Assembly (NCBI GenBank): GCA_963783375.1
Contig: CAWANH010000028.1
Coordinates: forward strand, 1,728,001-1,792,000
From: Candidatus Eiseniibacteriota bacterium
Lineage (GTDB): Bacteria > Eisenbacteria > RBG-16-71-46 > JABDJR01
Direction of reading: 5' to 3'
DNA length: 64,000 nt
Below the pieces are notes generated by a model. It searched no databases. It was not told the origin of the DNA and saw only the letters and a program-made list of their open reading frames with translations. A program made the translations under genes and the position numbers. Below, one piece after another: positions 8,799 through 54,766 of this stretch. Position 1 is the stretch's first letter, and each line of letters opens with the position of its first letter.

Positions 8799-10451
8799 GT
8801 GTCGTTTCTGAGTCGGATGTTCGGACGGTGGGGGAATCCCCACTATGCCCGCGGCATCATGCACTTCAACCGCCGGGAATATGCCGAAGCGGTGGCGGAG
8901 TTCGAGGCGCTCCTGGCCAAGGGAGCCGATCCCTCCAACCCCGACGTCGAGCTGGCCCGATTCTACGCCGCCGAGGCTCACGCCAAGCTGGGGCTGGCCC
9001 TCTACGCCAAGGGGGACTATGCCCCGGCCGAGGCCCAGTTCCGGAGCGCGGTGGAGGTGGAGGGAGACTATCCCGATCTCCACTACTACCTGGGCGTGTT
9101 GGCGGAGCGGCAGGGGCGGGCCCCCGAGGCCCTGCCCCACCTGGACCGGGCCCTGGAGCTGAACCCGGACTACGCCGAAGCCCTGGCCTACCGGGCGATC
9201 GTGAACCAGGCGATAGGAGAGCCCGAGGCGGCGTCGGCCGACCTGGACCGTCTATCCACCCTGAATTTCCAGATGCCCCCCTCGCTCAAACCCCCGCCGC
9301 GTCCACCGATCCCCGCCCACGCCCTCGAGGAGCTTCGGGCCGCGCTGGAGACTCGAACCCGGCCCGACGACCGGCTGGCCGCGGCGGCCGAGGCCTACGA
9401 CCGGGGAGACCTGGAGGCGGCCCGCTCGGCCCTGGAGGCGGCGGTGGCCGAAAAGCCCGGTTATGCCGATCTCCGGTGCCGCTACGGCCAGGTCCTGGCC
9501 GAGCTGGGCCGGCAGGAGGAGGCGGTCGCCGCCTTCGACGCCGCCCTGGCCCGAAATCCCGACTACGTGGAGGCCCTGCTCGCGCGGGGTCTGGCCCTCC
9601 TCGTGCTCGACCGCCCGTCGGAGGCCTGGGATTCCCTCCGGCGCGCCGGAGGGCTCAAACCCACTTTCGCGGACATCGCCTGCTACGAAGGGATCGCCGC
9701 GCTGCGATCCGGCCACCCGGCGCAGGCGGTGACCGCGCTCGGGCGCGCCCTCGAGCAGAACCCGCGCTATTGGCGCGCCCGGTTCGCCCTGGGTCAGGCG
9801 CGGGTGGCCCAGGGCGATACCGAGACCGGGCTCGCCGATCTCAAGGCCTCCCTGGATACGGATCGGCGCCTGGACGTGGCCCGGGCCTATCTGGGCTCTC
9901 TCCATCTCGACCGGGAGGAGTTCGGCGCCGCAACCGATCACCTGACCTTCGCGGTGAGCGCCCACCCCGACTACCCCGATCTCCGGCTCCAGCTCGGCTT
10001 GGCCCACCTCGGGTCGGGGATGCTGGACGCGGCGCGTCGGGAGATCGGCGAGGCGATCCGGCTCCATCCGGGCTACGTGAGCGCCCATACCGCGATGGGA
10101 CGCACCGAGATCGCGGCGGGGCATCCGACCGAGGCGATCCCGCACCTCGAGCGTAGCCTGGAGCTGGATCCCGGTCTGGCCGACGCGCGGCGGCTTCTGG
10201 CCGAGGTCCGGCTCGCCGCCGGGGACGAGGGACGGGCGGAGCAGGATTTCACCGCCGCCCTCGCCCTCAACCCGCACTACGTGGACGCGCTCCTCGGGCT
10301 GGGAATGCTGCGGCGCCGGCAGGGCCGGGACGCGGAGGCGCGGGAACTCTTCGGGCGGGCGCTGGAACTCCGGCCGGGGGATCCGGTCGCGGGGGCGTTC
10401 CTGGGACGGGTGGGCGGGGATGGCGGGTCGGAGGAGGGGCGGGGCGAGTGA
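8799..10451 (+). CDS. Multi-TPR protein (~550 aa)
   Basis: GTG start after GGAGG at 8784-8788; many repeats of the form P.YPDL.Y.LG / A..LNPDY.EA; no catalytic domain seen. Confidence 0.85.
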   Translation: MSFLSRMFGRWGNPHYARGIMHFNRREYAEAVAEFEALLAKGADPSNPDVELARFYAAEAHAKLGLALYAKGDYAPAEAQFRSAVEVEGDYPDLHYYLGVLAERQGRAPEALPHLDRALELNPDYAEALAYRAIVNQAIGEPEAASADLDRLSTLNFQMPPSLKPPPRPPIPAHALEELRAALETRTRPDDRLAAAAEAYDRGDLEAARSALEAAVAEKPGYADLRCRYGQVLAELGRQEEAVAAFDAALARNPDYVEALLARGLALLVLDRPSEAWDSLRRAGGLKPTFADIACYEGIAALRSGHPAQAVTALGRALEQNPRYWRARFALGQARVAQGDTETGLADLKASLDTDRRLDVARAYLGSLHLDREEFGAATDHLTFAVSAHPDYPDLRLQLGLAHLGSGMLDAARREIGEAIRLHPGYVSAHTAMGRTEIAAGHPTEAIPHLERSLELDPGLADARRLLAEVRLAAGDEGRAEQDFTAALALNPHYVDALLGLGMLRRRQGRDAEARELFGRALELRPGDPVAGAFLGRVGGDGGSEEGRGE

Positions 10452-13046: not shown

Positions 13047-13532
13047 GTGATCGTTCGTTGTCCCGACTGCCGCTCGAAGTACGAGATCGCCGCCGATCGG
13101 ATGCCCGAGGACGTGACCAAGCTCCGCTGTCCGCGGTGCAAGGCGGTTTTCCCGGTGAGCTGGGCCGCCGACGGATCCGCGGTGGCGGCGGGCGCCGTCG
13201 AGGCCTCGGCGTCCGATGCGGACGGCATCAGGCCGGCGTCCGCGCACTTCCCCGCCGCCGATCCCCCACCCCCCCGCCCACGTCCGCGCATCACCGACCC
13301 CGGTCTGGCCCGGCGGATGGCCCGGGCCATGATTTCGGAGATGGTGCTCAACCGACGGGGCGAGCGGGACGAGGCGCTACGCGAGGGGATGGTGCTCAGC
13401 CGTTTCGGTCCGGCCATCGCCGGAGCCTTCTCTCTCTACCGGACCAAGGTCTCGGAGGAACTGGAGTCGGGGCCCGTCTACTTCCGCGAGGCGGTCAACG
13501 AGATCCTCGGGGAGGGGAAGCGGATCCTGTAG
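13047..13532 (+). CDS. MJ0042-type zinc-ribbon protein with conserved helical C-terminal domain
   Basis: CPDC-X18-CPRC; Pro/Ala linker; ARRMARAMISEM...YFREAVNEILGEG; GTG after GAGGGGGGAG. Confidence 0.8.
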   Translation: MIVRCPDCRSKYEIAADRMPEDVTKLRCPRCKAVFPVSWAADGSAVAAGAVEASASDADGIRPASAHFPAADPPPPRPRPRITDPGLARRMARAMISEMVLNRRGERDEALREGMVLSRFGPAIAGAFSLYRTKVSEELESGPVYFREAVNEILGEGKRIL

Positions 13533-18610: not shown

Positions 18611-18637
18611 TCAAGTTCGGCGGCAGCCCGCCGATAT
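18611..18637 (+). promoter_or_regulatory. Sigma28 (FliA-type) promoter of mglA
   Basis: TCAAG...: TCAA-N15-GCCGATAT, ~75 nt before ATG 18713. Confidence 0.72.
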
Positions 18638-18712
18638 CTCCCGGTACGTGCGGGTCCGCTCAGCGAGGGCGGGCATGGTCCATGGCTTCAGTGCACCAAG
18701 GGGGTTCGACCC

Positions 18713-20038
18713 ATGGTCGTAGTGTCCTACTCCGGGAAAGAAATCAACGCCAAGCTGGTTTACTACGGCCCGGGACTCAGCGGTAAGACGACCAATCTCG
18801 AGTACATCTACCAGAGCGTTCCCTCGAACAACCGGGGGAAGATGGTCTCCATGAAGACCCGGACCGAGCGCACGCTCTTCTTCGACTTCCTGCCGGTGGA
18901 CCTCGGGGAGATGGGCGGGTTCAAGACCCGGTTCCTCCTCTACACCGTTCCCGGCCAGGTGTACTACAACGCCACCCGGAAACTGGTCTTGCGCGGGGTG
19001 GACGCGGTGATCTTCGTGGCCGATTCCGCCCGCGGGAAGATGGACGAGAACATCGAGTCCCTTCGGAACCTGCACGAAAACCTGAAAGAGTACGGGCTCA
19101 GCACCGAGGACATCCCGGTGGTGATGCAGTACAACAAGCGCGATCTCGACGACGTCTATTCGGTCGAGGAACTGGAAGAGGCTCTGAACCCGGACGGCCT
19201 GACCTGCTTCGAGGCGGTGGCCACCACGGGGCAGGGGGTCTTCGAGACCTTCCGGGGCATCGCCCGGGTGCTTCTTCAGAAGCTGAACAAGGACATCAAG
19301 CTGGGAGACGGGCGCGGGTTGGCGGCCAAGATGGGAGGGGTGGACGGCACGGCTCACCCCGCCCCGGCTGGAGTCCCCACGCCGACGTCCGCACCCGCGG
19401 CCGCGAGCCCTTCGAAGGTCCCGGAGACCCCGAAGCCGGCCGCCCCGGCTTCCTTCCGGCCGCCGAAGCCGGAACCGGTCGCGCCGCCGCGTCCGGAGCC
19501 GAGGCAGAAGCCCGCGGCGCCCGAACCCCAGCCGGTGAAGGCGTCGGAGCCCGCGACCCCGCCGACGGCGCCCAAGCCGGTCGTGGCCCCCGCCCCGGCC
19601 GCGGCCTCCAAGCCCGAGCCCCCGGCCCCCCGGCCGGAGCCCGAGCCGGTGGAAGCCCGGTCGGGATCCCGTCCGAGCCCGGCTCCCGAAATGCGTCGCG
19701 TGGAGGGCACCCGGCCGGCCGACGTGCTGGAACTCCCCGCCGAGAGCTTCAGCCCCGCCTCCGAGGAGGGCGAGAAGCCCGGCTTCTGGGGCCGGTTGTT
19801 CGGCCGAAAGGCCCGGGCAGACCAGGGCGCCGAGACCCTGGTGGCCGAGGCGAGCCTGGCCCCGGTGGAGATTCCCGCGGTGGGGGGCTCCGGCGACACC
19901 TCCCCGGTCTTTATCGAGCGCCGTATCCAGGTGCCGATCACCCTGGGCCCCGACGAGATCGTCCGGGGGGCGAAGCTCCGGCTGGTCCTGGAGATCCGGG
20001 TGGATCCGGCCCAGAAACGGGACTCCAAGGTGGCCTGA
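18713..20038 (+). CDS. mglA: MglA-family small GTPase with a long Pro/Ala linker and extra C-terminal domain (441 aa)
   Basis: KLVYYGPGLSGKTTNL, TERTLFFDFLP, LYTVPGQVYYNATRKLVLRGVD, YNKRDL, AVATTGQGVFETF. Confidence 0.93.
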   Translation: MVVVSYSGKEINAKLVYYGPGLSGKTTNLEYIYQSVPSNNRGKMVSMKTRTERTLFFDFLPVDLGEMGGFKTRFLLYTVPGQVYYNATRKLVLRGVDAVIFVADSARGKMDENIESLRNLHENLKEYGLSTEDIPVVMQYNKRDLDDVYSVEELEEALNPDGLTCFEAVATTGQGVFETFRGIARVLLQKLNKDIKLGDGRGLAAKMGGVDGTAHPAPAGVPTPTSAPAAASPSKVPETPKPAAPASFRPPKPEPVAPPRPEPRQKPAAPEPQPVKASEPATPPTAPKPVVAPAPAAASKPEPPAPRPEPEPVEARSGSRPSPAPEMRRVEGTRPADVLELPAESFSPASEEGEKPGFWGRLFGRKARADQGAETLVAEASLAPVEIPAVGGSGDTSPVFIERRIQVPITLGPDEIVRGAKLRLVLEIRVDPAQKRDSKVA

Positions 20039-20211: not shown

Positions 20212-20730
20212 ATGTTCCGGAAGCACAACACAGCCATCTTCGCCCTGATTCCGATGGTCGCCCTTCTGGCTGGCGCCGGAGCGGCTTCGGCCGGGATCCC
20301 CGACGCCACGCCCCCCGCCCTCCAGGGCATCGGAACCGAGCCGTCGGCCGGGCTCCTGAACTCCGGACTGCTCGACTTCTCCCGTTTCGACGTTCGGAAC
20401 AGCCTCAGCTACTCCTATTCCTCATCGTCGCAGTTCGGTTCGCAATCCGCCGGACTCTGGATGACCGAGATCGGCTACCGTATCTCCGACCCGCTCCGGG
20501 TCTCGGTGGACGTGGGGGCGACCCTCGATCCCTCCTCGGAGAACCTGTTCAGCGAGAAGAACATCTTCCTCCGAGGCTTCAATCTGGACTACCGGCCGAG
20601 TCGGAACTTTCAGTTCAACGTCTCCTACGTGAATACGCCTCCCGCCGCGGCCACCGCTCTCGGTTATCGCGGCTGGCCTTACGCGGGGGGATTCCGACCC
20701 TATGGGTCGCCCCTGAGTATGGGCCATTGA
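20212..20730 (+). CDS. Secreted hypothetical protein (beta-strand rich)
   Basis: GGAGG SD, Sec signal ending ASA, alternating beta-strand pattern. Confidence 0.75.
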   Translation: MFRKHNTAIFALIPMVALLAGAGAASAGIPDATPPALQGIGTEPSAGLLNSGLLDFSRFDVRNSLSYSYSSSSQFGSQSAGLWMTEIGYRISDPLRVSVDVGATLDPSSENLFSEKNIFLRGFNLDYRPSRNFQFNVSYVNTPPAAATALGYRGWPYAGGFRPYGSPLSMGH

Positions 20731-21875
20731 AATTTCGGTCCTCTTCCTCCTCCTCTCCCGCCGTCGTTTCCTCGTCGACCCGTGGCCTACGTGACCGGGC
20801 CGAGGACACCGCCCGCCGCCTGAAGGCGGAGCCGGGCCGGTTGGATCTCGTCCTGGAGCTGGCCCAGACCCTGGAGCGGCTCGGGGAACACCGTGACGCG
20901 CTTCGCGTGGTGGAACGCATGTCCAAGCGGGGGGCGTCCACTCCCGAGCTGGTCCGGTTGCGGGCGGAGTGCCTGCGCCGGGTGGGCCGGGCCGAAGAGG
21001 CGGTGACCGTGCTCGACGAGGCGGCGGAGATGCTGGCGGACGTCCCCAGCGCCTGGATCACCCGGGGCCGGTGTCTGGCCGCGGCGGGGCGGCTCGAGGA
21101 GGCGGTCGAGGCCTCGCAGAACGCGGCCCGCCTCGATCCCGGGAGCGCCGACGCCCAGTATTCCGTCGGGGTGACCCTGGCCCGGGCCGGCCGGGGCTAC
21201 GAGGCCGAGCAGGCCTACAACCGGGCGATCCGCCTGGACCCCGACATGGCCAAGGCCCACATCAACCTCGGCATCCTCTACGACACCCTCGGACGGAAAG
21301 AGGACGCTCTGGCCTCGCTCCGGCGCGCCACCACCTGCGACCCCGAGAGCGCGGTGGGTCACGCCAACCTGGGAGCGATCTACGGGGAGCAGGGTCGGCG
21401 CGAGGAGGCGTTGGCCGAGCTCAAGCGGGCGTTGGAGATCGACCCGCGCTCCGCCGAGGCCCACTTCAACCTCGCGCTCCTCTACCTGGACGAGGGCCGG
21501 CTGGAGCAGGCGACCGAAGCGTTGACCGCGGCCCGGGAGACCGCTCCCGAGGACACCCGCATCCTCTACTACTCCGGGGTGCTCGCGCTTCGCCAGGGGC
21601 GTCACCAGGAAACCGTCTCGGTGTTCACGGAGTACGTGCGGCTCCAGAAGGAGGACGCCCGCGGCCACTACCACCTCGGGGTGGGGCTCCTGCGCCTGAG
21701 CCGCCTGGACGAGGCGGTCCAGAGCTTTCAGCAGGCGGTGAAGATCGATCCCGGCCACCAGCGCGCCCACTACTACCTCGGGGTGGCCTTCGACCGGAAG
21801 GGCCTCAAGCACGAGGCCCGTCTCGCCTACCATGCCGCCGACCGGCTAGACCGGGGCGGCCCCCCGCTCGGATAG
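20727..21875 (+). CDS. TPR repeat protein
   Basis: About 10 TPRs (DP..A.AH.NLG..Y); TTG start overlaps upstream stop. Confidence 0.88.
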   Translation: MKFRSSSSSSPAVVSSSTRGLRDRAEDTARRLKAEPGRLDLVLELAQTLERLGEHRDALRVVERMSKRGASTPELVRLRAECLRRVGRAEEAVTVLDEAAEMLADVPSAWITRGRCLAAAGRLEEAVEASQNAARLDPGSADAQYSVGVTLARAGRGYEAEQAYNRAIRLDPDMAKAHINLGILYDTLGRKEDALASLRRATTCDPESAVGHANLGAIYGEQGRREEALAELKRALEIDPRSAEAHFNLALLYLDEGRLEQATEALTAARETAPEDTRILYYSGVLALRQGRHQETVSVFTEYVRLQKEDARGHYHLGVGLLRLSRLDEAVQSFQQAVKIDPGHQRAHYYLGVAFDRKGLKHEARLAYHAADRLDRGGPPLG

Positions 21876-28968: not shown

Positions 28969-29937
28969 ATGCACTCCATGGACGGGATTGGCGAGAACGG
29001 CGGCACGACGGCGGCACGACGGCCACGGCTCAAGCTCGTGCCGGGCGGACGGCCCGGTGACGGGCTCGAGCCGGCGCCCCCGCTCCGGCCGGTTCGCACG
29101 GTGGCGGTGGCCAGCGGCAAGGGCGGGGTCGGGAAGACCAGCCTGACCGTGAACCTGGCCATGGCCCTGGCCGAACTCCAGCAGAGAGTGCTGGTGGTGG
29201 ACGGGGACCTCGGGCTCGGAAAGCTCGATCTCATGATCGGGGCCGCCCCGCGGTTTCACCTGGGGCACGTCCTGGCCGAGGAGTGCGACGTCACCGACGC
29301 CGTGATCACCGGGCCCCGCGGCGTGCGCTTCCTCCCCGGAGCCTGCGGCGGCGGCCAGCTCGCCGTGCTGGACCCGGTCCGCCGGCGCCGTTTCTTCGCG
29401 GCCCTGGACCGGTTCGCCGGCTCCACCGACGTGGTGCTCCTCGATCTCGCGCCCGGGATCGGTCCCAACGCCCTGGACCTGGCCCGCCACGCGGACGAGG
29501 TCCTGGTGGTCACCACCCCCGAACCCACCGCCTACGCCGACGCCTACACCGTGATCAAGATCCTTTCCACCCCGGGGGCGCTCCCGCCCCGGGTGGTGGT
29601 GAACCGGGCCCGGAGCGAGGAGGAGGCCCACGACACGTTCCTACGGCTTTCCGGCACCGCCAAACGCCACCTCGGGGTGGCCCCGGTCTTCTGGGGGCTG
29701 ATCCCCGAGGACGAGACGGTGGGCACCGCGGTGCGTCGCCAGATCCCCTTCACCTTGAGCTCCCCGGACACGCCGGCCAGCCGCCACGTGCGAACCCTGG
29801 CCTGGCGCTTGCTACGGGGAAGGACCCCGGACGGGGGCGATCGCGCACCCGTCCTCGACTCCCAGGGGGGCCCGAACGGCGGGCGCCCCGGACGCGGACC
29901 GTCGGTGAGCCGCCCGCGCCTTTGGGAGGCCGCGTGA
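28969..29937 (+). CDS. flhG: MinD/ParA-family ATPase, FlhG/FleN type
   Basis: Deviant Walker A SGKGGVGKT, DGDLGLG, DLAPGIG, FlhG-typical TPEPTAYADAYTVIK, IPEDETV..AVRRQ.PF; followed by fliA. Confidence 0.85.
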   Translation: MHSMDGIGENGGTTAARRPRLKLVPGGRPGDGLEPAPPLRPVRTVAVASGKGGVGKTSLTVNLAMALAELQQRVLVVDGDLGLGKLDLMIGAAPRFHLGHVLAEECDVTDAVITGPRGVRFLPGACGGGQLAVLDPVRRRRFFAALDRFAGSTDVVLLDLAPGIGPNALDLARHADEVLVVTTPEPTAYADAYTVIKILSTPGALPPRVVVNRARSEEEAHDTFLRLSGTAKRHLGVAPVFWGLIPEDETVGTAVRRQIPFTLSSPDTPASRHVRTLAWRLLRGRTPDGGDRAPVLDSQGGPNGGRPGRGPSVSRPRLWEAA

Positions 29938-29975
29938 CCCGAGCCCGGATGACTACCAAAAGGAGAGACCCCTCC

Positions 29976-30749
29976 ATGTCGACCCCGCGAGTTGCCGCCA
30001 CCGCCAAGCCCGATGTCGCCGCGCCGCCCGCCCTGTGGCGGAAACCCACCAAGGACGAGGCCTACCGTCGTTACGCCCCGCTCATGAAGTACGTGGTGGA
30101 TCGCGTCGCCTCCAACGTGCCCAAGTACGTGGAGCGCGACGACCTTCTGAACGCCGCCGCCCTGGGACTCTTCGACGCCCTGGAGAAGTACGACAGCGGG
30201 AAGGGAACCAAGTTCGAGACCTACGCGGTGTGGCGGATCCGGGGAGCGGTGCTGGACGAGCTTCGCGCCATGGACTGGGCCAGCCGCTCCATCCGGCGCA
30301 AGGCCCGCCACGTGGACACCCTGACCCGGGAACTCGATCAGCGCCTTGGTCGGGCAGCCAGCGACGACGAACTGGCCGAGGTCATGGACATCTCCTCCAC
30401 CGAGATGGCCCGGGTTCTGGAGGAAGTGCGGGGTGTGGTCCTGCTCTCCCTGAACCAGTCCTCCAGCGAGACCGACGACGGGCACTCCGGCGGCCTGGCC
30501 GAGGTCATCGAGGATCCCCATTCCGAGGACGCCCTGGACGAGATCGAGAAGCACCAGCTCTCCGATGTGCTGGTGGACGTGATCAGCGATCTCTCCGAAC
30601 AGGAGAAGCTCGTCCTGGCCCTCTACTACTACGAAGAGATGACCCTGAAGGAGATCGGCCAGACCCTGGGGATCTCCGAATCCCGGGTATCCCAGATCCA
30701 CACCAAGGCGATCTCCCGGCTCAAGGGCCGGATGCGCCGGGCCGCCTGA
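29976..30749 (+). CDS. fliA: RNA polymerase sigma28 factor (FliA/WhiG family)
   Basis: KFETYAVWRIRGAVLDELRAMDW.SRSIR; region 4 LYYYEEMTLKEIG..LGISESRVSQIH; SD AGGAGA. Confidence 0.95.
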   Translation: MSTPRVAATAKPDVAAPPALWRKPTKDEAYRRYAPLMKYVVDRVASNVPKYVERDDLLNAAALGLFDALEKYDSGKGTKFETYAVWRIRGAVLDELRAMDWASRSIRRKARHVDTLTRELDQRLGRAASDDELAEVMDISSTEMARVLEEVRGVVLLSLNQSSSETDDGHSGGLAEVIEDPHSEDALDEIEKHQLSDVLVDVISDLSEQEKLVLALYYYEEMTLKEIGQTLGISESRVSQIHTKAISRLKGRMRRAA

Positions 30750-42698: not shown

Positions 42699-45600
42699 AT
42701 GTGTAGGCGTCTCACGCGCAGCTCCAGTTCGATTCTGACCGGATGCGCGATGCTCATGCTCCTGTTCCTCGTGGTCGGGGCGGTGCCAGCCTCGGCCGAC
42801 AACGGGGCGGTTCCTCCGGCGTTCGGCGGCGTCACCGCCGCCATGGTTCGGACCAACGCCCAGCAGATCCAGTACGACCCGCCGTTGGACGTATTCGGGA
42901 ACGGCGGGTCGTGTCCCGACCCGACCAATTACGGCTTCGACTACGGCGACAGCGTCTACGTCTGGCTCGCGCCGAGCGGGGACCTGTGGTGGGTGATCGA
43001 AACCCACGGAAACGTCGGGGACTCCAATCAGGACGGCGGTTACGACACCAACACCCCCGATTGCGGGGGCCATCCGGGCTGCGTCAACACCGAGGCCGAC
43101 GCTTTCAACAACATCTTCGCCTCGGGGGTGGAATCGGTCACCATCGGGGTCGATCGCGACTGCAACGGGGTCAACGACCTCCGCTTCACCCTGACCGGCG
43201 CCGGTGACCGCGCCGCGGACGAGGTCCGGGTCACCCTGGACGCGATGACCAACTACTTCAACTCCACGCTGGGTGAGCAGGGAACCGCCTGGAGCGGCGA
43301 CCCCATCCAGGTGGGCCCGGACGCGGTCTGCGTGGTCCAGCGGAACGGCGCGGTCATGATCAGGATCCCGGATTGGCAGAAGTACTTCCGGGACCCGAAC
43401 ACCAACGCTTTCTTCGCCTCTCCCACCGTCTTTTCCTGGCTGGTGGACTCGGGCAACAACTCGGACTTCTACACCGAGGACACCGTCGTCGGTCTCTTCG
43501 ACGTGTCCGCTCCCAACATCTCCATCGACAAGCAGGCCAATCCGACCCTGGTCTGCACGACGGGGGACTCCACCCGGTTCACGGTGACCGTGACCAATAC
43601 CGGAAACACCCCGCTCACCAACGTGCAGCTCACCGATGTGCTGCCCGCTGGGCTGACCTACGGAAACGCCTACATCGACGACCCCACTCTTCCCCTTGGG
43701 GCACCGACGGTTCTCTCGAACAACCTGTCCTGGGGCTCATTCTCGATGGAGCCCCTGGAGTCCCGGACCATCTCCTACCGGGTGCTTACCGATGGATGCT
43801 CGGGGACGGAGGCCAACCAGGCGGTGGTCACCGCCGAGTTCAACTCGGACTGCCTGCCGCTTCCCAGCGGCCTGCGCGAGGAGAGTTCGGCCCAGGTGAC
43901 CTGTGCGGAACCGGGGATCTCGGTCACTCCGCCCGCCGACAGCCGGCTCTGCGTCCTCTCGCCGGTGTCGCTGACCTTCGTGGTCACCAACACGGGTAGT
44001 CACACCGAGGACCTGAACTTCACCGGAATGTTCGACGGGTCGCCGGCCACGGTTGCTCCCACGTCGCGGGCCGGCGTGGCCGCCGGGGACACCGTCCACG
44101 TGGTCCTGACCGCGGTCATGCCCGGAACCTGCGCCGGGGACCTCACCGCCCAGGTGTCCGCCTCCGGCGACATCCCCGGGCTCACGAACTGCAGCGCGGC
44201 GGACAGCGCCCTGGCCACGGTGCAGTGCTCCGAGCCCGGGGTCACGGTGACCCCGCCCACGGACCTGACCGCCTGCGTGGACACCCCCCTCAACCTGGAG
44301 TTCGTGGTGACCAACACCGGGAACTCCACCGAGAACCTGACCTTCAGCGGGATGTTCGGGGGATCGCCGGCGACGGTGAACCCGGCGTCGCGGAACGGCC
44401 TTGCCGCCGGGGACACGGTGCACGTGGTGGTGACGGCAACGATGCCGTCGACGTGCAACGGCGACATCACGGTGTCGGTGACCGCGAACGCCTCGGTGGA
44501 CGGGGTCCAGGGTTGCGACGACTCGGACAGCCAATCCTCGATCGTTCACTGCGCCGACGCGGGGGTCTCGGTAGCCGCTCCGCCCGATACCAAGGCGTGC
44601 GTGGACTCGACGCTTCTGATGACGTTCGTGGTGACGAACACCGGGAACGTCACGGAGGATCTGAGCTTCACCGGGATGTTCGGGGGATCGCCGGTCGCGG
44701 CCAACCCGGCCTCGCGGAACGGCGTTGCGTCGGGGGACACGGTGCACGTGGTGCTGGCCGGAGTGATGCCGGCCCAGTGCAGCGGGGACGTGATCGCCCG
44801 GGTGGACGCCTCGGCAACCATTCCGGGGGTCGACCTCTGCGATGCCGACGCCGCCGACAGCGCCACCGTGCAGTGCGCGGAGGCGGCGGTAGACGTGGCT
44901 CCGGCGGGCCAGATCTTCGCGTGTCTGGACTCGGACATCGCGTTCGAGTACGTGGTGACGAACACCAGCGCGGAGACGGAGAACCTGACCTTCGCCGGTC
45001 TGTTCGACGGATCCCCGGTGACGGCGACCCCGGCGTTCCGGAACGGGGTGGCGGCGGGGGACACGGTGCACGTGATTCTGTCCGGGTCGTGCAGCGGGCG
45101 GACGATCAACACCCAGCTGACCGCCACCGCAGTGGTGGACGGGTTGCCGGGCTGCGAGGCCCAGGACTCGGCGGAGGGGTCGGCGACCTGCGCGACCCCG
45201 GGAGTGGGGGTGACGCCGCCGACGGACATCACGCTGTGCGTGGACAGTCCGGTGGTGCGTGAGTTCGTGGTGACGAACACCGGGAGCGATCCCGAAGACC
45301 TGACGTTCAGCGGGATGTTCGACGGGTCGCCGGCGACGGTGAACCCGACGTCGCGGAACAGCGTGGCGGCGGGGGACACGGTGCACGTGGTGGTGACGGG
45401 GACGATGCCGTCGACGTGCAACGGCGACATCACGGTGTCGGTGACGGCGAACGCGTCGGTGACGGGTCTCCAGGGGTGCACGGACAGCGACACCCAGCCG
45501 ACGACGGTGCACTGCGTGGACGCGGAGGCGAGCGTGACGCCGCCGCCGAACACGAAGGCGTGCGTGGACTCGACGCTTCTGATGACGTTCGTGGTGACGA

Positions 45601-48600
45601 ACACCGGGAACGTGACGGAGGACCTGACGTTCACCGGGATGTTCAACGGGTCGCCGGCCACGGTGAACCCGGCGTCGCGGAACGGCGTTGCGTCGGGGGA
45701 CACGGTGCACGTGGTGCTGACCGGGTTGATGCCGTCCCAGTGCAGCGGGGACGTGACCGCCCGGGTGGACGTGAGCGCGTCGGTTCCTGGCGTGGGAGCG
45801 TGCGACGCGGCCGACTTCGCCACCGCCACCGTGCAGTGCGCGGAGGCGGCGGTAGACGTGGCTCCGGCGGGCCAGATCTTCGCGTGTCTGGACTCGGACA
45901 TCGCGTTCGAGTACGTGGTGACGAACACGAGCGCGGAGACGGAGAACCTGACCTTCGCCGGTCTGTTCGACGGATCCCCGGTGACGGCGACCCCGGCGTT
46001 CCGGAACGGGGTGGCGGCGGGGGACACGGTGCACGTGATTCTGTCCGGGTCGTGCAGCGGGCGGACGATGCGACACCCAGCTGACCGCCACCGCAGTGGT
46101 GGACGGGTTGCCGGGCTGCGAGGCCCAGGACTCGGCGGAGGGGTCGGCGACCTGCGCGACCCCGGGGGTGGGGGTGACGCCGCCGACGGACATCACGCTG
46201 TGCGTGGACAGTCCGGTGGTGCGTGAGTTCGTGGTGACGAACACCGGGAGCGATCCCGAGGACCTGACGTTCAGCGGGATGTTCGACGGGATCGCCGGCG
46301 ACGGTGAACCCGACGTCGCGGAACAACGTGGCGGCGGGGGACACGGTGCACGTGGTGGTGACGGGGACGATGCCGTCGACGTGCAACGGCGACATCACGG
46401 TGTCGGTGACGGCGAACGCGTCGGTGGCGGGGCTCCAGGGGTGCACGGACAGCGACACCCAGCCGACGACGGTGCACTGCGTGGACGCGGAGGCGAGCGT
46501 GACGCCGCCGCCGAACACGAAGGCGTGCGTGGACTCGACGCTTCTGATGACGTTCGTGGTGACGAACACCGGGAACGTGACGGAGGACCTGACGTTCACC
46601 GGGATGTTCAACGGGTCGCCGGCCACGGTGAACCCGGCGTCGCGGAACGGGGTGGCGTCGGGGGACACGGTGCACGTGGTGCTGACCGGGTTGATGCCGG
46701 CCCAGTGCAGCGGGGACGTGACCGCCCGGGTGGATGTGAGCGCGTCGGTTCCTGGCGTGGGAGCGTGCGACGCGGCCGACTTCGCCACCGCCACCGTGCA
46801 GTGCGCGGAGGCGGCGGTCGACGTGGCTCCGGCGGGCCAGATCTTCGCGTGTCTGGACTCGGACATCGCGTTCGAGTACGTGGTGACGAACACCAGCGCG
46901 GAGACGGAGAACCTGACCTTCGCCGGTCTGTTCGACGGATCCCCGGTGACGGCGACCCCGGCGTTCCGGAACGGGGTGGCGGCGGGGGACACGGTGCACG
47001 TGATCCTGTCCGGGTCGTGCAGCGACCGGACGGTGGCGACGTCCTTGACCGCGACGGCGGTGGTGGACGGGTTGCCGGGCTGCGAGGCCCAGGACTCGGC
47101 GGAGGGGTCGGCGACCTGCGCCACCCCGGGGGTGGGGGTGACGCCGCCGACGGACATCACGCTGTGCGTGGACAGTCCGGTGGTGCGTGAGTTCGTGGTG
47201 ACGAACACCGGGAGCGATCCGGAGGACCTGACGTTCAGCGGGATGTTCGGGGGATCGCCGGCGACGGTGAACCCGACGTCGCGGAACGGCGTGGCGGCCG
47301 GGGACACGGTGCACGTGGTGGTGACGGGGACGATGCCGTCGACGTGCAACGGGGACATCACGGTGTCGGTGACGGCGAACGCGTCGGTGGCGACGCTCCA
47401 GGGGTGCACGGACAGCGACACCCAGCCGACGACGGTGCACTGCGTGGACGCGGAGGCGAGCGTGACGCCGCCGCCGAACACGAAGGCGTGCGTGGACTCG
47501 ACGCTCTTGATGACGTTCGTGGTGACGAACACCGGGAACGTGACGGAGGACCTGACGTTCACCGGGATGTTCAACGGGTCGCCGGCCACGGTGAACCCGG
47601 CGTCGCGGAACGGGGTGGCGTCGGGGGACACGGTGCACGTGGTGCTGACCGGGTTGATGCCGGCCCAGTGCAGCGGGGACGTGACCGCCCGGGTGGACGT
47701 GAGCGCGTCGGTTCCTGGCGTGGGAGCGTGCGACGCGGCCGACTTCGCCACCGCCACCGTGCAGTGCGCGGAGGCGTGCGTGAACGTCATTCCGCCCAAC
47801 CCGATCACCGCCTGCGCGGACGCGGCGGTCTCGGCGGAGTTCGTGGTCCAGAATTGCGGGAACGACACCGAGGACATGACCTTCACCGGCCTCTTCCTGG
47901 GGCTTCCGGCCACGGTCACCCCCGCCTCCCGTAACGGGGTTGCCCCCGGGGACACGGTTCACGTCGTGCTCCACGGGGTGATGCCCGCGAACTGCGACTT
48001 CGGCGTGGATCCCATCACGATCCAGGGCGGGGGCGCGGACGTGGGCGTCAAGGCCATCACCATTCCCACCGTGGATCTCTCCGCGGTGGCCACGGTGTCG
48101 GGTCTCGCGGGTTGCGAGTTCCGGGACTCGGCCTCGGCCGACCTGGATTGCGTGAACCCCGACGTCCTGGCCGAGGCGCCCCCGCGGACGACGTTCTGCG
48201 CGGACGCTCCGGTGAGCCTCACCTTCGTGGTGACCAACACCGGCAGCGACCCCGAAGACCTGACGTTCGGCGGGATGTTCAACGGCTCTCCGGCGACGGT
48301 GACGCCGTCCTCCCGGAACGGGGTGGCCGTGGGCGATACCGTACACGTAGTCCTCTCGGCCACGATGCCGGCGGTTTGCGACGGTCCCTACACCGGACGG
48401 GTCATCGTCGCGGCGGCGACCGGTCTGGTCGCCTGCGACGCGGCGGATACCGCGGACGTGCTGGTGGACTGCGCGGAGCCCGGAGTGGACGTCGCGCCGC
48501 CGGATCCCTCCACCGCATGCGCCAGCTCCATGGTGTGGCTCGAGTTCGTGGTGACCAACACCGGGAACCTCGCCGAGAACATGATCTTCGGCGGGTCCTT

Positions 48601-50464
48601 CGGGACGGATCCCGCCACGGTCACCCCGGATGCGCGAAACGGCGTGGCCCCCGGGGACACCGTGCACGTCATGGTGCACGGGGAGCTTCCGGGCAGCTGC
48701 AACGGACCCCTCCAGGCCCGCCTGGCGGTGACCGGCCAGATCGTCGGCGTGGACCTCTGCGCCGCCGAGGACATCGACTCCACCCAGGTCTCCTGCGCCG
48801 GCCCCTGCGTGACCGTCACCGGACCGCCGACCGATGAGGTCTGCCCGGGAAGCGACGTGTGGACCACCTTCGTGGTGGAGAACTGCGGCAACGAGACCTC
48901 GAACCTGAGCTTCACCTCTACGTTCAACGGCAGCCCGGCCGCGCCGGTTCCGGCCTCCCGGAACGACGTGGCCCCCGGGGACACCGTGCACGTGATGATT
49001 CACGGCACCATGCCCGCCGACTGCCAACCCATCCCGGAGCGCCGGGGGTGGTGAACGCGGCCGCGGGCGGCCCGGCGAATCCGCCCGCCGCGGGAGCGCA
49101 GGTCAAGCTGGTGGCCCTGGCCGAGATCGCGGGGACGACCGAGTGCGCGGCCTCGGACAGCGCGTAGCGCCTTCATCCCTGCAAGATCCCGAGCGTCTCC
49201 CTGGTGAAGGACACGTCGCCCGACACGACCGAGACCACTTCCAAGGTCACGATCGTGGTGGAGAACACGGGGAACTCGGTGCTCGACCCGGTCCTGGTGA
49301 GCGACCATCTGCCGTCGGCGCTGGGCTTCGACACGAACCAGATCATCGGCGGGACCTGCGGGGCCAGCCTGGATCACGTCCAGACCGTGGGTGACGTCTC
49401 CTGGGTGTTCTTCAGCGGGTTCTCCCTCGATCCGGGACAGTCCTGCACGATCATCTACGACGTCAATTGCCGGTCCACGACCGGGGAGGCCAGCATCGAC
49501 ACCGCCTACGTGGAGGCCTGGTGCGACGGCACCTTCGGCATCGTCGAGCCGGTGACCGACTCCGACACCGCCAGCGTGGTGTGCCGGACCCCCGGCGAGG
49601 CCTGTCCCCGCACGATCGGGTTCTGGCGTCAGCAGTGCGCGCAGAAGTTGAACGGATCCACCAAGATCTGCGAGGCCGGCATGGAGTCGCTGTGGGTGTG
49701 CGTGATCAATGCCACCGACGTCGTCCAGTGGAAGAAGAACGACGGCAGCTACGAGACGACGGCCAGCCTCCGGACCTTGGGAGGAGCGAACCCGACCGGG
49801 CTGTTCGACGCACTGTGCTCCCAGCTCCACGGTCCTCGTCCGATGACCATCCGCGACATGACCGAACTCCAGTACCTGGGACTCATGCTCAACGTGTGTT
49901 CCTCGGCCATCGCCCGGGGCATTCCGGTGAGCAACTCTTTCGTGGGCACGGTGGGTGAGGCGATCGACGGGATCGAGAACGCCCTCGAACACCGGACCAG
50001 AACCTCGGTTACTGGGAGGGCATCGCGGACCAGATCGACAACGGGATCGGCGTTCTCGCCGCGGAACTGCCCGGATCGAGAACGGGATCTTCAGCAATCT
50101 CCCGGGCTGCAGCGCTGCCACGGTCGGGCAGACCAGGGAGCTCGGGTTCCTGAGCGGGATGACCGAGATGCCCACGATCTTCAACTCGAGGCCGTACCCG
50201 AACCCGGTCTTCTCGGGCCAGACCATCATCCTGGTCGAAGTCCCCGAGGCGATGGGTGTGCGCGACGTGCGGGTCGAGGTCTACGATCTCAAGGGCGCCA
50301 AGGTCCGTCAGCTCTACAGCGCACCCATGAATCCCGGTCGCCACACCGTGAACTGGGACCTCCGCGACGACGGCGGTTCCGACGTGGCTTCGGGGATCTA
50401 CTTCTACCGGGTGGTGGCGGGGGACACCGCAATCACCCAGAAGATGCTGGTCATGCGCCGCTAG
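42699..50464 (+). CDS. Giant secreted Cys-rich Ig-repeat protein, paralog A (~2580 aa; frame broken by several single-base indels)
   Basis: Signal peptide; acidic head domain; DUF11-like domain; 16 modules of ~107 aa (FVVTNTG...SRNGVA.GDTVHV); second DUF11-like domain; CPRTIGFW domain; YPNP...GIYFYR CTD. Indels near 46070, 46290, 49035, 49165-49180 and 49987-50080, located by comparison with sister repeats and paralog C. Confidence 0.85.
44225..47775 (+). repeat. Intragenic tandem repeat, 963-bp unit (3 modules, 321 aa), ~3.7 copies
   Basis: GTGGACTCGACGCT recurs at 44601, 45564, 46529 and 47492 (spacing 963/965/963); near-identical from ~44870. Confidence 0.95.
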
Positions 50465-50482
50465 GACGGCGCGATTGAGGGA

Positions 50483-50513
50483 GGGAACGGAGGGCCTGAG
50501 GGTCCCCCGTTCC
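50483..50513 (+). terminator. Hairpin after paralog A
   Basis: GGGAACGG...CCGTTCCC stem; no strong U tract. Confidence 0.4.
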
Positions 50514-50809
50514 CGGGCCCTTCGAACTCTCCGGACGAGGCTCCGCCCCAGGGCGGGGCCTCGTTCTTTCAGGGACGCGGCGGAATCCGGTCCGGGAGTC
50601 GACCGCTCGAACCGGGGGACCCAAGAGCGAAGCCGACTCCGGTCCATCCCGGGTCCCGAGGCGATGAGGAGTGTGCCGGTATTGAAGGAACCTCGACGCT
50701 CAGGATGCGCGGGCGCCGGTCGCTCCAACACCTGCGGGCTTTCCGCCGCAGGAAAGCCGACGTGGACCCGGCAGTCCGGCCTCATTTGTCTGCGGATCGT
50801 TTCAGGATG

Positions 50810-50934
50810 TAATCATTTGATTACTATCACGGCTAGAAAGGTCATAAGTGATTGGTTTTCGGACGTTAGGTCCCGAATTCTGCGAAATAAATTAGTCAAG
50901 AATATTGACTTTGCCCACCCATTCTTGATATCAA
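50810..50934 (+). promoter_or_regulatory. Paralog B upstream region: IHF sites, palindrome and sigma70 promoter
   Basis: Minus-strand AATCAAATGATTA (50810-50822) matches WATCAAN4TTR exactly; one-mismatch site 50845-50857; AGTCAA-N5-TTGACT at 50894-50910; TTGACT-N18-TATCAA with TG. Confidence 0.6.
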
Positions 50935-51206
50935 TTCAATTCGTTGACAGATAAGCCGCACTTGCAGGGAGGTGCAAGGTCGGGGTTTCGTCGTTGGGCG
51001 ATGCGGATAGCCATGTTGGCGCTGCGATCCGGGAGCGCGGCGCCGAGGGGGGGATCCCCCAGCATCCATCCTGCAATCCCGCCCGTGTCTCTCTCCGGAA
51101 CCCCACTCACCGAGCCCTCCGATCGCGTCTTCCGCTCTTCCGACGCCACCTGCAGGTGTAAGTAGCGCTTCGCGGACCACAGACTTCGCGGATGGAGGAA
51201 ATCACA

Positions 51207-54200
51207 ATGTCGAGCAAACTCATGGGCCTCCGGAGAGCACCGCTCTTCGGCGTCGGCCTCATTCTGGCGGTGGCCATCGCGCTCCTCGGCGCGGGTCCCG
51301 TCTTCGCCAACAACGGGATCAATACCCCGCCGGTCGGCGGCGTCACCGCCGACATGGTTCGGGCGGCGGCCCAGAACATCGTGTTCGATACGGAGGGCGA
51401 CGTCTTCGGCGGCGGCGGCAGCTGTCCCAACCCGGTGAACTACGGCTTCGACTACGGCGACAGCGTCTACGTCTGGCTGTCTCCGGCGGGGGACCTTTAC
51501 TTCGCGGTCGAGATCCATGGAAACGTGGGGGACTCGGACCAGGACGGAGGCTATGACACCGAGGGATCGACCTGCGGTGGGCATCCGGATTGCGTGGCCG
51601 CGGAGGCCGACGCCTTCCACAACATCTTCGCCTCCGGGGTCGAGTCCATCACCTATTCGATCGACCGGGACTGCAACAACGTCTTCGACCTCCGGTTCAC
51701 CCTCACCGGGGCCGGGAACATGAAGGCGGACTCCGTTTCGGTGACCCTGGATTCGATGACCGGCACCTTCGGGGACATCCTGGGCGGACAGGGCACCGCA
51801 TGGGCCGGCGCGCCGCTGCAGGCCGGTCCCGACGGGGTCTGCGTCGTGGCGCGGAACAGCACGGTCGTGGTCAGGATCCCCGACTGGGGCCGCTATTTCG
51901 AGGATCCGGTCACCCACGATCCGATCCCCGGCATCGTGTCCAACATGTTCACCTGGAGGGTAAACTCCGGAAACAACTCGGACAGCTACACCGAGGACGA
52001 GGTTCTGGGGGTGTTCGACACCTCGAACCCCCAGATCGACCTGTCGAAAACCACGTCCAAGAACCAGCTCTGCGGGAACGGGGACACCGCCCGGTTCACC
52101 CTCACCGTGACCAACACCGGGAACACGCCTCTGACCGGCGTCACCCTGAGCGATCAGCTTCCGACCGGTCTGGGCTACAACGATTCCTACATCGACGATC
52201 CGACCAACGCGATCGGGAGCCCGAACGTGGTTTCGGACCTCCTGACCTGGACCCCCTTCGACCTGGAGGTCGGCGGGTCCCGGGTCGTCTCCTACCTGGT
52301 CGTGAGCAATGGGTGCCAGGGCCAGGTGTCGAACGCCGCCGTGGTCCAGGGGACGTTCGACGTGGACTGCCTGGACGTGCCGGTGAACGTGGGTGACCAG
52401 GACGCGGCCACCGTGACCTGCGTCGACCCCGGGGTGTCGGTGACCGCTCCGCAGGCTCAGAGCCTCTGCGCGGGGTCGCCGTGGACGGCTACCTTCGTGG
52501 TCACGAACACCGGCGACGCGACCGAGAACCTCTCCATCGCCTGTACGATCGGCGGCGCGCTCCAGACGCCGGTAGTCCGCAACGGAATCGCGGTGGGGGA
52601 CACGGTCCACGTGGACGTGGCCGGAACCCTGCCCGCGACCTGCGGCTCTCCGATCACCGTGAGCTGTGAGGCTACCGCAACCCTGCCCGGGGTGGATCCC
52701 CAGGCGTGTTCGGACGTCGACAGCGATCAGACCACGGTGAGCTGCACCGCGGCGTGCGTGACCGTGGCCGACGCCCCCAACGACACCGCCTGCGCGGGGA
52801 CGACCCTCTGGATCGAGTACGTGGTGACCAACTGCAACGGCCAGGGCGGCGACGAGAACATGACCTTCTCCGGCATGTTCAACGGATCCCCGACCACGGT
52901 GAGCCCGACCTCTGCCTCGAACGTGGCCGACGGGGACACCGTGCACGTGAAGCTGCTGGCGGTGCTGCCCGCGACGGACTGCAACCCGGCCGGACACCTC
53001 GGCACCCTGACCGCGAACGCGGCCCTGGCCAACGACGCCGGGTGCACGGACTCGGACAGCGGCGACGGACGGGCCTTCTGCGACGTCCCCGACGTGGACA
53101 TCGTGAAGACCACCAGCCCGACCACCACCGACTCCGGCTCCACGGTGACCATCACCGTCACCAACCCGGGCGGCGCGGCCCTCGACCCGGTCCTGGTCAG
53201 CGACCACCTGCCCGCCGGCCTGACCTTCGACGCGGGCCAGACCCTCGGTGGAACCTGCGGCGCGACGGTGGATCACGTGCAGACCGTAGGGGATCTGACC
53301 TGGGTCTTCTTCACCGGGTTCTCCCTGGACCCGGGCGCGAGCTGCACCATCTCCTATGAGGTGGGCTGCGGTCAGTTCGACAACGCGGCCCGCGTGGACA
53401 CCGCCTACGTGAGCGCCTGGTGCGCCGGAACCTCCCAGACCACCGATCCGGTGACCGCGTCGGACACCTCGGCCGTGGTCTGCGAGCGGGAGGAGATCTG
53501 CTGCTGGATGACCACCGGCGGATTCGAGAACGGCGGCTTCAGGTCCGGCAACAAGGACGACAACTTCGGCGGGAACGTGGGTCCGCCCCCCAGCGGGCAG
53601 TGGCAGCACGTCCAGCGGTCCGGGAAGAAGGTCGTCTTCAACTTCCACAGCCACGACGCCCGCGTACGCGCATGCGGGAACGACGGGACCGCCGGTCCCT
53701 GCGTGCCTCGCGGCCACTCCAACTGGATCGAGTTCGGCGGGCCCGGGGCCTACAACCTGGGGAACGGCCCCCGGAAGTACGCTGCGTACTTCACCGCCCG
53801 GGCCGAGGATCACGGGGAGCCGGGTCGTCGCGGGAACCAGAACGGCGGCTGCGGCACTCCGGACTACTACGAGATCACGGTCTGGGACGGCGCCACCAAC
53901 GAGGTCGTGTTCACCGCCTCCGGTCTCCTGGACGGCGGGAACATCCAGATCCGCGACTGCAAGGCCAAGAAGCAGGAGGACGAACCACCGCCGGTCACCG
54001 ACGGTTCCGCCCTGGACGGCTCCGGCAACCTGGGCAGCCTGGAGACCGGACAGGATCTGGGGCTCGCGACCCTGAGGCTTCGGGCCTATCCGAACCCGGT
54101 TTCCCAGGCTCCGACCCTGATCCAGTTCAACGTTCCGTCCCACTTGAGTGGGAGCCAGGTGGACATCTCGGTCTACGACATCACCGGCCGCAAGGTCCGG

Positions 54201-54353
54201 GCCCTGGTTTCCGAGACGATGAACGCCGGTCAGCGGACCGCGAGCTGGGACCTGCGTGACGAGTCAGGAAACGCGGTGGCGACCGGGATCTACTTCTATC
54301 GACTGCGGGTCGGGAGTGAGTCCCTGACCCAGCGGATCCTGGTCATGCGGTAA
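51207..54353 (+). CDS. Secreted Cys-rich Ig-repeat protein, paralog B (1048 aa, intact) with post-COAP-1-like distal domain and CTD
   Basis: GGAGG SD; same head and DUF11-like domains as A; 2 modules; MTTGG...NFGGN...EDHGEPG...DYYEI...GGNIQ; YPNP...GIYFYRL. Confidence 0.92.
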   Translation: MSSKLMGLRRAPLFGVGLILAVAIALLGAGPVFANNGINTPPVGGVTADMVRAAAQNIVFDTEGDVFGGGGSCPNPVNYGFDYGDSVYVWLSPAGDLYFAVEIHGNVGDSDQDGGYDTEGSTCGGHPDCVAAEADAFHNIFASGVESITYSIDRDCNNVFDLRFTLTGAGNMKADSVSVTLDSMTGTFGDILGGQGTAWAGAPLQAGPDGVCVVARNSTVVVRIPDWGRYFEDPVTHDPIPGIVSNMFTWRVNSGNNSDSYTEDEVLGVFDTSNPQIDLSKTTSKNQLCGNGDTARFTLTVTNTGNTPLTGVTLSDQLPTGLGYNDSYIDDPTNAIGSPNVVSDLLTWTPFDLEVGGSRVVSYLVVSNGCQGQVSNAAVVQGTFDVDCLDVPVNVGDQDAATVTCVDPGVSVTAPQAQSLCAGSPWTATFVVTNTGDATENLSIACTIGGALQTPVVRNGIAVGDTVHVDVAGTLPATCGSPITVSCEATATLPGVDPQACSDVDSDQTTVSCTAACVTVADAPNDTACAGTTLWIEYVVTNCNGQGGDENMTFSGMFNGSPTTVSPTSASNVADGDTVHVKLLAVLPATDCNPAGHLGTLTANAALANDAGCTDSDSGDGRAFCDVPDVDIVKTTSPTTTDSGSTVTITVTNPGGAALDPVLVSDHLPAGLTFDAGQTLGGTCGATVDHVQTVGDLTWVFFTGFSLDPGASCTISYEVGCGQFDNAARVDTAYVSAWCAGTSQTTDPVTASDTSAVVCEREEICCWMTTGGFENGGFRSGNKDDNFGGNVGPPPSGQWQHVQRSGKKVVFNFHSHDARVRACGNDGTAGPCVPRGHSNWIEFGGPGAYNLGNGPRKYAAYFTARAEDHGEPGRRGNQNGGCGTPDYYEITVWDGATNEVVFTASGLLDGGNIQIRDCKAKKQEDEPPPVTDGSALDGSGNLGSLETGQDLGLATLRLRAYPNPVSQAPTLIQFNVPSHLSGSQVDISVYDITGRKVRALVSETMNAGQRTASWDLRDESGNAVATGIYFYRLRVGSESLTQRILVMR

Positions 54354-54438
54354 GCGACGGGGCCCTTGGGCCCGTCGGCGATCGGCGGGCGATGCCGGCC
54401 CGGGTCCAGCGCCCGGACCGGCGCCGTCTCGACCGAAT

Positions 54439-54474
54439 CGGGGCGCTCCCTCACCGGGGGCGCCCCGAGTTTTC
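54439..54474 (+). terminator. Rho-independent terminator after paralog B
   Basis: CGGGGCGCTCCC-TCACC-GGGGGCGCCCCG followed by AGTTTT. Confidence 0.6.
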
Positions 54475-54676
54475 CTTCCCCCATCGCAACGTCCCCGAAG
54501 TCGGTCCGTGCCCATTCGAACGCATGGGATCTGAAGGGGGCCGAATCGACGGTTCTCCGACGTCGCCGCGGTCTGACGCGCGGAGTTTCCGACGCTGGCT
54601 GGAGACAGTGGAAAATACTCTGACGTTCTGGAGAGTCTATGTCAACGAATGACTACATGTTCTGCGTGCAAGTCTG

Positions 54677-54766
54677 TAATAAGTTGATTTCAATGGCCGT
54701 TATAACGCCCAGTCTACAAAGTAAATCGTAAGAAAGATTGACTTCGTGGATTTGATCTGATAATTT
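54677..54766 (+). promoter_or_regulatory. Paralog C upstream region: IHF site and sigma70 promoter
   Basis: Minus-strand AATCAACTTATTA (54677-54689) is an exact IHF consensus; TTGACT(54738)-N17-TAATTT with TG. Confidence 0.6.

Follow-up and report, generated by a model that had tools for sequence, protein, structure and literature searches.

Gene organization of the locus

The window, by which is meant the whole 64,000-nt stretch of Eisenbacterial DNA analysed here, encodes a 441-aa MglA protein (ATG at 18713, stop at 20038, forward strand) whose gene follows a sigma-28-type promoter and lies between a gene for a zinc-ribbon, RomX-like protein and genes for a TPR protein and a FliA/WhiG-family sigma factor (Table 1). 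Position 18611, the first position of the stretch described in an earlier sequence-only reading of the locus, is where the promoter begins, and the true start codon is separated from the promoter by a leader of approximately 75 nt. The gene order ftsZ, TPR, rpmB, recG, zinc-ribbon gene, long mglA, TPR, bacA and, further on, flhG-fliA recurs in both phyla that carry the long gene; among 78 related loci, many of them truncated, recG was matched in 45, the TPR gene in 38 (mostly just downstream of long mglA), the zinc-ribbon gene in 26 and fliA in 10.

Table 1. Positions in the window of the long mglA gene's features and of neighbouring genes
Feature	Positions	Strand	Basis or comment
Zinc-ribbon and RomX-like protein	13047..13532	+	Candidate exchange factor or GTP-state partner
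Sigma-28-type promoter, TCAA-N15-GCCGATAT	18611..18637	+	25.4 bits
MglA G-domain, residues 1-195	18713..19297	+	P-loop, R53, T78, Q82, NKRD
Pro/Ala-rich linker, residues 196-354, predicted disordered	19298..19774	+	Composition; mostly low pLDDT; length varies among orthologues
Basic amphipathic helix KPGFWGRLFGRK, residues 355-366, predicted membrane anchor	19775..19810	+	Hydrophobic moment 0.57
Conserved beta-helix-beta tail, residues 401-431	19913..20005	+	115/120 homologues; no known family
C-terminal SKVA, candidate ClpXP degron	20024..20035	+	Ala-Ala in many orthologues
TPR protein, candidate effector	20841..21875 (start may be 20727)	+	Pfam TPR
flhG-like gene and FliA/WhiG-family sigma-28	28969..30749	+	TIGR02479, 253 bits (cut-off 189.6)

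The N-terminal part of the protein is the intact MglA G-domain that the sequence-only reading had described, containing the P-loop GPGLSGKTT (residues 19-27), RTLFFD (53-58), PGQ (80-82) and NKRD (141-144). Residues 3-193 find their best matches among PDB sequences in the MglA proteins of Thermus thermophilus (E 3.5e-73) and Myxococcus xanthus (E 7e-70), and MglA structures rank first when the AlphaFold model is searched with Foldseek (E 2e-21). In structural alignment the identity to group 1 MglA of these two species (6h17, 6izw, 3t12) is 53-58%, and the Ras-like fold, P-loop, Thr78 and NKxD motif of that group are shared, as are the intrinsic arginine finger R53 and the catalytic Q82. The catalytic motifs of the GTPase are intact, and R53, T78, Q82 and NKxD are invariant in all 92 aligned long MglA sequences. 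Group 1 proteins are single domains of ∼195 aa; the long protein, in contrast, adds some 245 residues that comprise the helix, the tail and a Val-Ala end, and no MglB was found for it. Complete long orthologues range from 322 to 633 aa.

A separate clade of long MglA proteins

The long gene is the sole MglA match in this genome. The sequence-only reading had remarked that no roadblock gene is adjacent and had proposed a search for mglB elsewhere; none was found within four genes, the distance by which mglA-mglB pairs have been defined (PMC4316618), or anywhere in the 97%-complete genome, where the best Pfam PF03259 match had an E-value of 0.19 and a six-frame search with an MglB profile built from nine relatives reached only E 9.2. 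MglB was likewise not found in eight other genomes of this order (0/6 in this family and 0/2 in the sister family). Across the phylum, MglB was matched in 106 of 136 genomes (0/4 in family f14) and in all five sister-group genomes tested, and long MglA in 124 of the 136, with best matches of E 3e-83 or better. Those relatives nearest to it that carry a name are Candidatus Eisenbacteria, and other members of the group are labelled Krumholzibacteriia and Latescibacterota.

Many of these genomes encode a second, short MglA of ∼192 aa next to mglB, and it is the short form, not the long one, that MglB adjoins. Compared with M. xanthus MglA, one of these short Eisenbacterial proteins reaches 304 bits and the long G-domain 239, which identifies the short form as canonical and the long form as a diverged paralogue. 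In a quick tree of 101 G-domains (unrooted by any outgroup, limited to Eisenbacteria and sister-group sequences, and with long branches among the short proteins) 92 long sequences separate from nine short ones with an SH-aLRT support of 99. Long MglA thus forms a separate clade in Eisenbacteria and Krumholzibacteriota. Whole families that lack both MglB and short MglA keep the long protein. From the scores, the tree and the distribution of MglB, long MglA is an old paralogue, the canonical pair having been lost from the present order. MglA coupled to MglB accounts for 390 of 449 proteins in an earlier survey, which mentions no more than two studied orphans (PMC4316618). A full-text literature search returned no paper on the long clade, the search covering few subscription papers and supplements such as that of PMC4316618 being places where such sequences may be tabulated. 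Long MglA is a genuine and newly described form of MglA that is conserved across the phylum, and in the families where it is the sole MglA found, nature has provided a case in which to ask how a Ras-like polarity switch can be positioned and inactivated without its GAP.

It is conceivable that a GAP does still turn the protein off, namely the MglB encoded beside short MglA in genomes that have this pair and an unrecognized non-roadblock GAP in the present genome, with the Ala-Ala end serving only to clear the protein at a change of stage. The invariance of R53 and Q82 would fit this, as would that of F56 and F57 (both 92/92), which are beta2 residues described as touching MglB (PMC6785124) and whose retention fits some GAP-like partner still being in use. 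The wide occurrence of MglB in the phylum and sister group points the same way, and SofG, too, has been described without an identified GAP (PMC4316618). However, MglB adjoins the other paralogue, whole families without MglB and short MglA retain the long form, and the long clade has fixed M47 (91/92) and K48 (92/92) near switch I, neither of which is found in eight short MglAs, so that this explanation appears improbable.

Linker, amphipathic helix and tail

Beyond the G-domain, the long Pro/Ala linker and the beta-rich C-terminal end noted in the sequence-only reading were both recovered: residues 201-350 consist of 28% proline and 19% alanine, and the end comprises the strands IERRIQVPITL (401-411) and LRLVLEIRVD (422-431) with a short helix between them. 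That reading had also called for conservation of the helix and the tail to be examined, and the two differ in this respect. The tail is present in 115 of 120 database homologues, a set independent of the loci read here, and in all 61 complete long-type loci of relatives (62 read), many of which had also fed the tail profile. A similar basic amphipathic helix (moment of at least 0.45), in contrast, was detected in 32 of the 79 long proteins that are complete, 13 of the 92 having been set aside as truncated or short; it is kept in all nine complete proteins of this order, takes variant sequences such as RLRRWL outside it, and was not found in family f10 or in the sister-phylum (Krumholzibacteriota/Latescibacterota) sequences. 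The description of the protein as a self-anchoring MglA variant may therefore hold for this order but does not define the family.

Within the protein, the helix stands out from its surroundings, its moment being equalled by none of 200 linker shuffles, and the strict form of the motif is carried by only two of 3384 predicted proteins of the genome. The second carrier is a 550-aa TPR protein encoded after ftsZ in the same conserved locus (window 8799-10451), which begins MSFLSRMFGR. In being short, basic and amphipathic the helix resembles the membrane-targeting sequence of MinD, for which the sequence-only reading gave KKGFLKRLFG, a motif that was not found in PMC8155659. That paper describes the targeting helix of MinD as C-terminal, whereas 75 residues follow the helix of long MglA. 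The helix would probably hold the protein encoded in the window at the membrane.

The tail is a small module of no known family. Searches of Pfam with 73 members gave no E-value below 0.026, the tail profile gave only summed weak matches to ubiquitin repeats among PDB sequences, Foldseek returned no match for the tail model, and the ESM Atlas held no usable match. The profile had 110 matches among 1.84 billion representative sequences; 97 of these were new and were inspected, and all but approximately eight, which are repeat-protein noise, are long MglAs or apparent C-terminal fragments of them, so that no other carrier of the tail was found. The other proteins of this genome also lack the motif, the next best match having an E-value of 0.34. 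A resemblance of the tail to AbrB/cradle-loop or DnaJ C-terminal motifs found no support in these analyses. In AlphaFold models the tail has a pLDDT of 74-87 within the full protein and of 90-92 in its core when modelled in isolation, with no intrachain strand pairing in either case and a pTM of 0.37. High local confidence combined with unpaired strands suggests that the tail may pair with another chain, either a second copy of itself or a partner protein.

Sigma-28-type promoter and predicted regulon

The promoter comprises TCAA and GCCGATAT 15 nt apart, each element having one mismatch to the sigma-28 consensus of -35 TAAA and -10 GCCGATAA (PMC8325347). When the genome was scanned with a matrix built from 39 orthologous sites, from which this genome's own and near-identical sites were left out, the site ranked second among 180 sites scoring at least 14 bits. 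Sites of the form TCAA or TAAA, 13-17 nt and GCCGATA, with at most one mismatch, precede 37 of 88 long mglA genes (four of 92 having too little upstream DNA), as against 1/88 on the reverse strand and 0.8% in shuffles. The sigma-28 promoter put forward in the sequence-only reading is thus supported by its sequence and by orthologues, although it was not found in families f6, f7, f9, f12, f13, and f18. A sigma-70 scan of the region gave no sites. Of the 23 sites that score at least 20 bits, 18 lie between genes, the genome being ∼86% coding according to a crude gene caller, and column-shuffled matrices yielded six, zero and zero such sites on the two large contigs. RNA runs sharing 6-8% of the words gave only short pieces, mostly of other MglAs. 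In family f10 (loci L023-L026) the promoter and the start codon are separated by a long leader that is conserved, ∼200 nt upstream of long mglA, and that is not seen in the shorter leader of the window; Rfam gave no match at six upstream loci, three of them from f10.

Genes behind sigma-28 sites include pilM (19.7 bits), a pilA-like pilin gene (15.1 bits) and two genes for PilB/GspE-type ATPases, together with genes for a bactofilin (20 bits), a GGDEF protein and an FHA protein; a few flagellar genes, flgM-like, flgL-like, and motA-like, are also preceded by sites. The pilA, flgM, flgL, and motA labels are our own reading of the sequences. In the main pilus cluster, pilB is preceded by an almost perfect site whose spacer of 14 nt keeps it from being scored by the scan, and in relatives pilM is preceded by a site of at least 14 bits in 7 of 29 cases and in none of the 29 on the reverse strand. 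In the present genome pilM spans two reading frames (C29:188226-189282; match to positions 3-245 of 348; two ORFs), through either an assembly error or a real break, the gene being intact in relatives. The genome's top-scoring site, at 25.5 bits, lies in front of a gene for a 97-aa protein that has no Pfam match (C29:457853-458146).

The sequence-only reading had long MglA expressed late under FliA. Its sigma-28 component is upheld by the conserved promoter; the flagellar, class 3 sense is not, as a FliA/WhiG-type factor exceeds the cut-off in 39 of 41 genomes and pilM is found in 40, whereas flagellin is found in 15. Together with the pilus-rich target list, these counts argue that the phrase should be replaced by a pilus-centred sigma-28 regulon, most relatives being without flagellin. 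Two FliA genes are encoded here, the conserved one in the window (29976-30749) and another in a separate flagellar island (C28:1918155-1952728), and flagellin is patchy in the genus, so that the island may have been separately acquired. Relatives with a single FliA and no flagellin keep the promoter, which makes the conserved factor its likely reader. From the distribution of promoter sites, long mglA is likely to be switched on together with pilus genes by sigma-28.

It could be argued instead that the switch acts in positioning flagella or in cell division, and not on pili, given its location between the dcw cluster and what would be a relic flagellar locus, flhG-fliA. Consistent with this are the conserved positions of ftsZ upstream and flhG-fliA downstream (the latter 7-22 kb from long mglA in 16 genomes, which were chosen as having both on one contig), the seven relatives with flagellin-family genes on the same contig within ∼45 kb, and the few flagellar genes with sigma-28 sites. 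The gene and its promoter nevertheless persist in the near-complete, flagellin-less relatives G001, G003, and G004, the flagellar genes of the present genome belong to the separate island with its second fliA, and PilM is near-universal. A primarily flagellar or division role is accordingly given little credence.

A non-flagellar sigma-28 factor has a precedent in Rubrobacter, where WhiG is predicted to drive pilus and diguanylate cyclase genes (PMC8325347). The regulon described here differs from it in that the -35 element is mostly TCAAG and in that Ala-Ala ends occur on both the sigma factor and its targets.

Ala-Ala and Val-Ala ends

Long MglA proteins frequently terminate in Ala-Ala or Val-Ala. 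Such ends are found at 29 of 77 long mglA loci (two of 79 having been omitted as probably frameshifted) and in 76 of 120 homologues, 58 with Ala-Ala and 18 with Val-Ala, compared with 85 of 3384 proteins of the genome; the protein encoded in the window ends in Val-Ala. Genes located behind sigma-28 sites show the same property, 17 of 63 (a count in which one duplicated gene appears twice) encoding such an end while only 64 of the 3238 remaining genes do so (Fisher p 3e-14, MglA excluded), and the proportion is 10/39 at a threshold of 16 bits and 4/21 at 18 bits. FliA orthologues end in Ala-Ala in eight of eight cases, while among other proteins Ala-Ala ends occur in FtsZ 0/20, NtrC 0/19, a kinase 0/24, RecG 2/45, and TPR 6/36. 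Ala-Ala and Val-Ala ends are therefore enriched approximately tenfold on the long clade, on sigma-28 and on sigma-28 targets, and the coincidence of two independent signals, promoter and terminus, on the same genes supports the regulon as real. Both this enrichment and the synteny of the RomX-like gene described below go beyond the sequence-only reading.

Ala-Ala is a ClpXP degron (PMC7142297), and the genome encodes clpP, an adjoining clpX-like gene and a tmRNA whose tag ends in ALAA. The enrichment thus points to turnover by ClpXP, and judging from the termini, long MglA is likely to be switched off via degradation by this protease; Val-Ala may act as a degron as well, given that it alternates with Ala-Ala among orthologues. 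The association of Ala-Ala ends with sigma-28 promoters opens a way into a life-cycle programme of Eisenbacteria and could guide cultivation.

Both the helix and the AA/VA end are more frequent where MglB was not found (17 of 23 genomes each) than where it is present (18 of 38 for the helix and 11 of 38 for the end), in counts for which kin are not independent and six of the 23 labels of absence come from families that otherwise have MglB. A gain of helix and degron on loss of MglB appeared well supported in 29 relatives and failed in 61; as both features also occur in genomes that keep MglB, they did not simply arise to replace it.

Across the genome, Ala-Ala ends are present far above background among proteins behind sigma-28 sites, the two FliA factors (e.g., that at window 29976-30749) and several PilT-like ATPases, further examples being at C29:169840 and C29:1157848-1160120, which suggests a stage programme cleared by ClpXP. 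Some small contigs (e.g., C6, C9, and C15) repeat genes of the two large contigs, and some genome counts therefore include duplicates.

RomX-like and TPR neighbours

The zinc-ribbon gene that recurs upstream of long mglA encodes an MJ0042-type zinc ribbon and a C-terminal RomX-like domain. The single sequence matches RomX (8zna) with an E-value of only 0.28, compared with 1.2e-12 for a profile of 20 orthologues. RomX itself is free-standing, whereas the two domains are joined here, and fusions of zinc fingers to RomX folds have been noted before (bioRxiv 10.1101/2024.02.20.581209). The gene is found in 29 of 41 genomes, in 22 of these within 16 kb of long mglA; it was found in none of five relatives that lack any MglA match, nor in seven genomes with long MglA. 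RomX binds MglA-GTP and stimulates nucleotide exchange via R11, R14, and D19 (bioRxiv 10.1101/2024.02.20.581209). Both arginines are kept in the RomX-like neighbour and D19 is replaced by glutamate in this order, being aspartate in most others; on the MglA side of the contact, E115 is kept in 85 of 92 long proteins, E108 is glycine in 71 of 92 and a new E112 is present in 90 of 92. The RomX-like neighbour would probably load long MglA with GTP. The zinc ribbon of GltJ (7zok) recruits MglB (PMC11135422), which was not found here. A crude screen, using no RomR profile, saw the receiver-plus-low-complexity architecture of RomR in none of 26 listed receiver proteins longer than 170 aa.

Downstream of long mglA, the TPR protein gave only generic TPR matches in the PDB and none to SgmX or Bd2492. 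This protein nevertheless has a place in another reading of the tail, in which the tail docks by beta-strand addition on the TPR neighbour, bactofilin or a pilus motor and so tethers the GTPase to a landmark, the helix being optional. Such docking would account for a tail that is near-universal when the helix is not, and strands unpaired in monomer models would fit any partner chain; the TPR gene is matched in both phyla, and the bactofilin gene has its own sigma-28 site, SofG being known to bind the bactofilin BacP (PMC4085708). Against it, the tail motif occurs in no other protein of the genome, one large family keeps the tail with no TPR gene beside mglA, and the TPR protein shows the generic matches just mentioned. 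Docking on a partner in place of self-association is thus considered rather unlikely, though it has more in its favour than a GAP or a flagellar role.

Known orphan MglA proteins and a proposed mechanism

Two MglA proteins that act without a partner MglB invite comparison. Bdellovibrio bacteriovorus has lost mglB, and its MglA (Bd3734) is required for pili at one pole and binds a TPR protein (PMC3983030). As described in that source, Bd3734 is a ∼22 kDa protein without a long tail that works with RomR and whose TPR partner is encoded in a tamAB operon, whereas the locus described here has its TPR gene close to mglA, and the crude screen revealed no RomR-like protein. SofG, an orphan second MglA paralogue of M. 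xanthus, places pilus motors and is tied to bactofilin (PMC4085708, PMC4316618). The consulted accounts of SofG, with which long MglA is compared by description only, mention no such C-terminal linker, helix or tail, and for long MglA the sigma-28 site of the bactofilin gene suggests co-regulation only. By analogy with SofG and Bdellovibrio MglA, long MglA may help to position pili at one pole or to activate them there.

It is proposed that sigma-28 would direct synthesis of long MglA alongside type IV pilus components, that the tail would join or cluster its copies, and that in this lineage amphipathic helices would hold the clustered protein on the membrane. A single MinD helix is too weak without dimerization (PMC8155659), and self-association of the tail could likewise give weak single helices avidity, as dimerization does in MinD. 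Kept GTP-bound by the RomX-like neighbour, the protein would pass its signal to the machinery of the pili, perhaps via the neighbouring TPR protein. Without MglB, slow hydrolysis and ClpXP, acting via the Val-Ala end, would end the signal, and the switch would mark one fixed pole for one life stage, with no oscillation. Membrane binding, tail self-association, the RomX interaction and proteolysis are postulated steps. The model as a whole, of a long-tailed MglA that is made by sigma-28, held at the membrane, joined by its tail, loaded by RomX and removed by ClpXP, is put forward tentatively, with a chance of being right that falls a little short of even. Counting against it are the 47 of 79 proteins without the helix, the Val-Ala rather than Ala-Ala end, the replacement of D19 by glutamate and of E108 (mostly) by glycine, the invariance of F56 and F57, the families in which the promoter was not found, the split pilM of this genome, and the lack of a RomR-like architecture in the crude screen.

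A bolder possibility is that the entire non-flagellar sigma-28 stage programme is wiped by ClpXP and that the GAP-less, self-anchored, RomX-loaded switch, with an oligomerization module of its own and turned off by destruction, serves as a one-shot polarity timer in a piliated dispersal or attack stage. This is doubtful at present; if true, it would mean that a phylum known only from uncultured members has a life cycle of two stages that has yet to be described.

Directly after mglA, at 20212-20730, the window encodes a 172-aa protein with a signal-peptide-like start and a weak TamB match (E 0.0014), which is found at 8 of 78 loci. Further downstream, a cluster at positions 42750-60796 encodes a subtilisin-like protease and a set of large proteins that are secreted and bear DUF11 repeats and C-terminal sorting domains of the T9SS/FlgD type.
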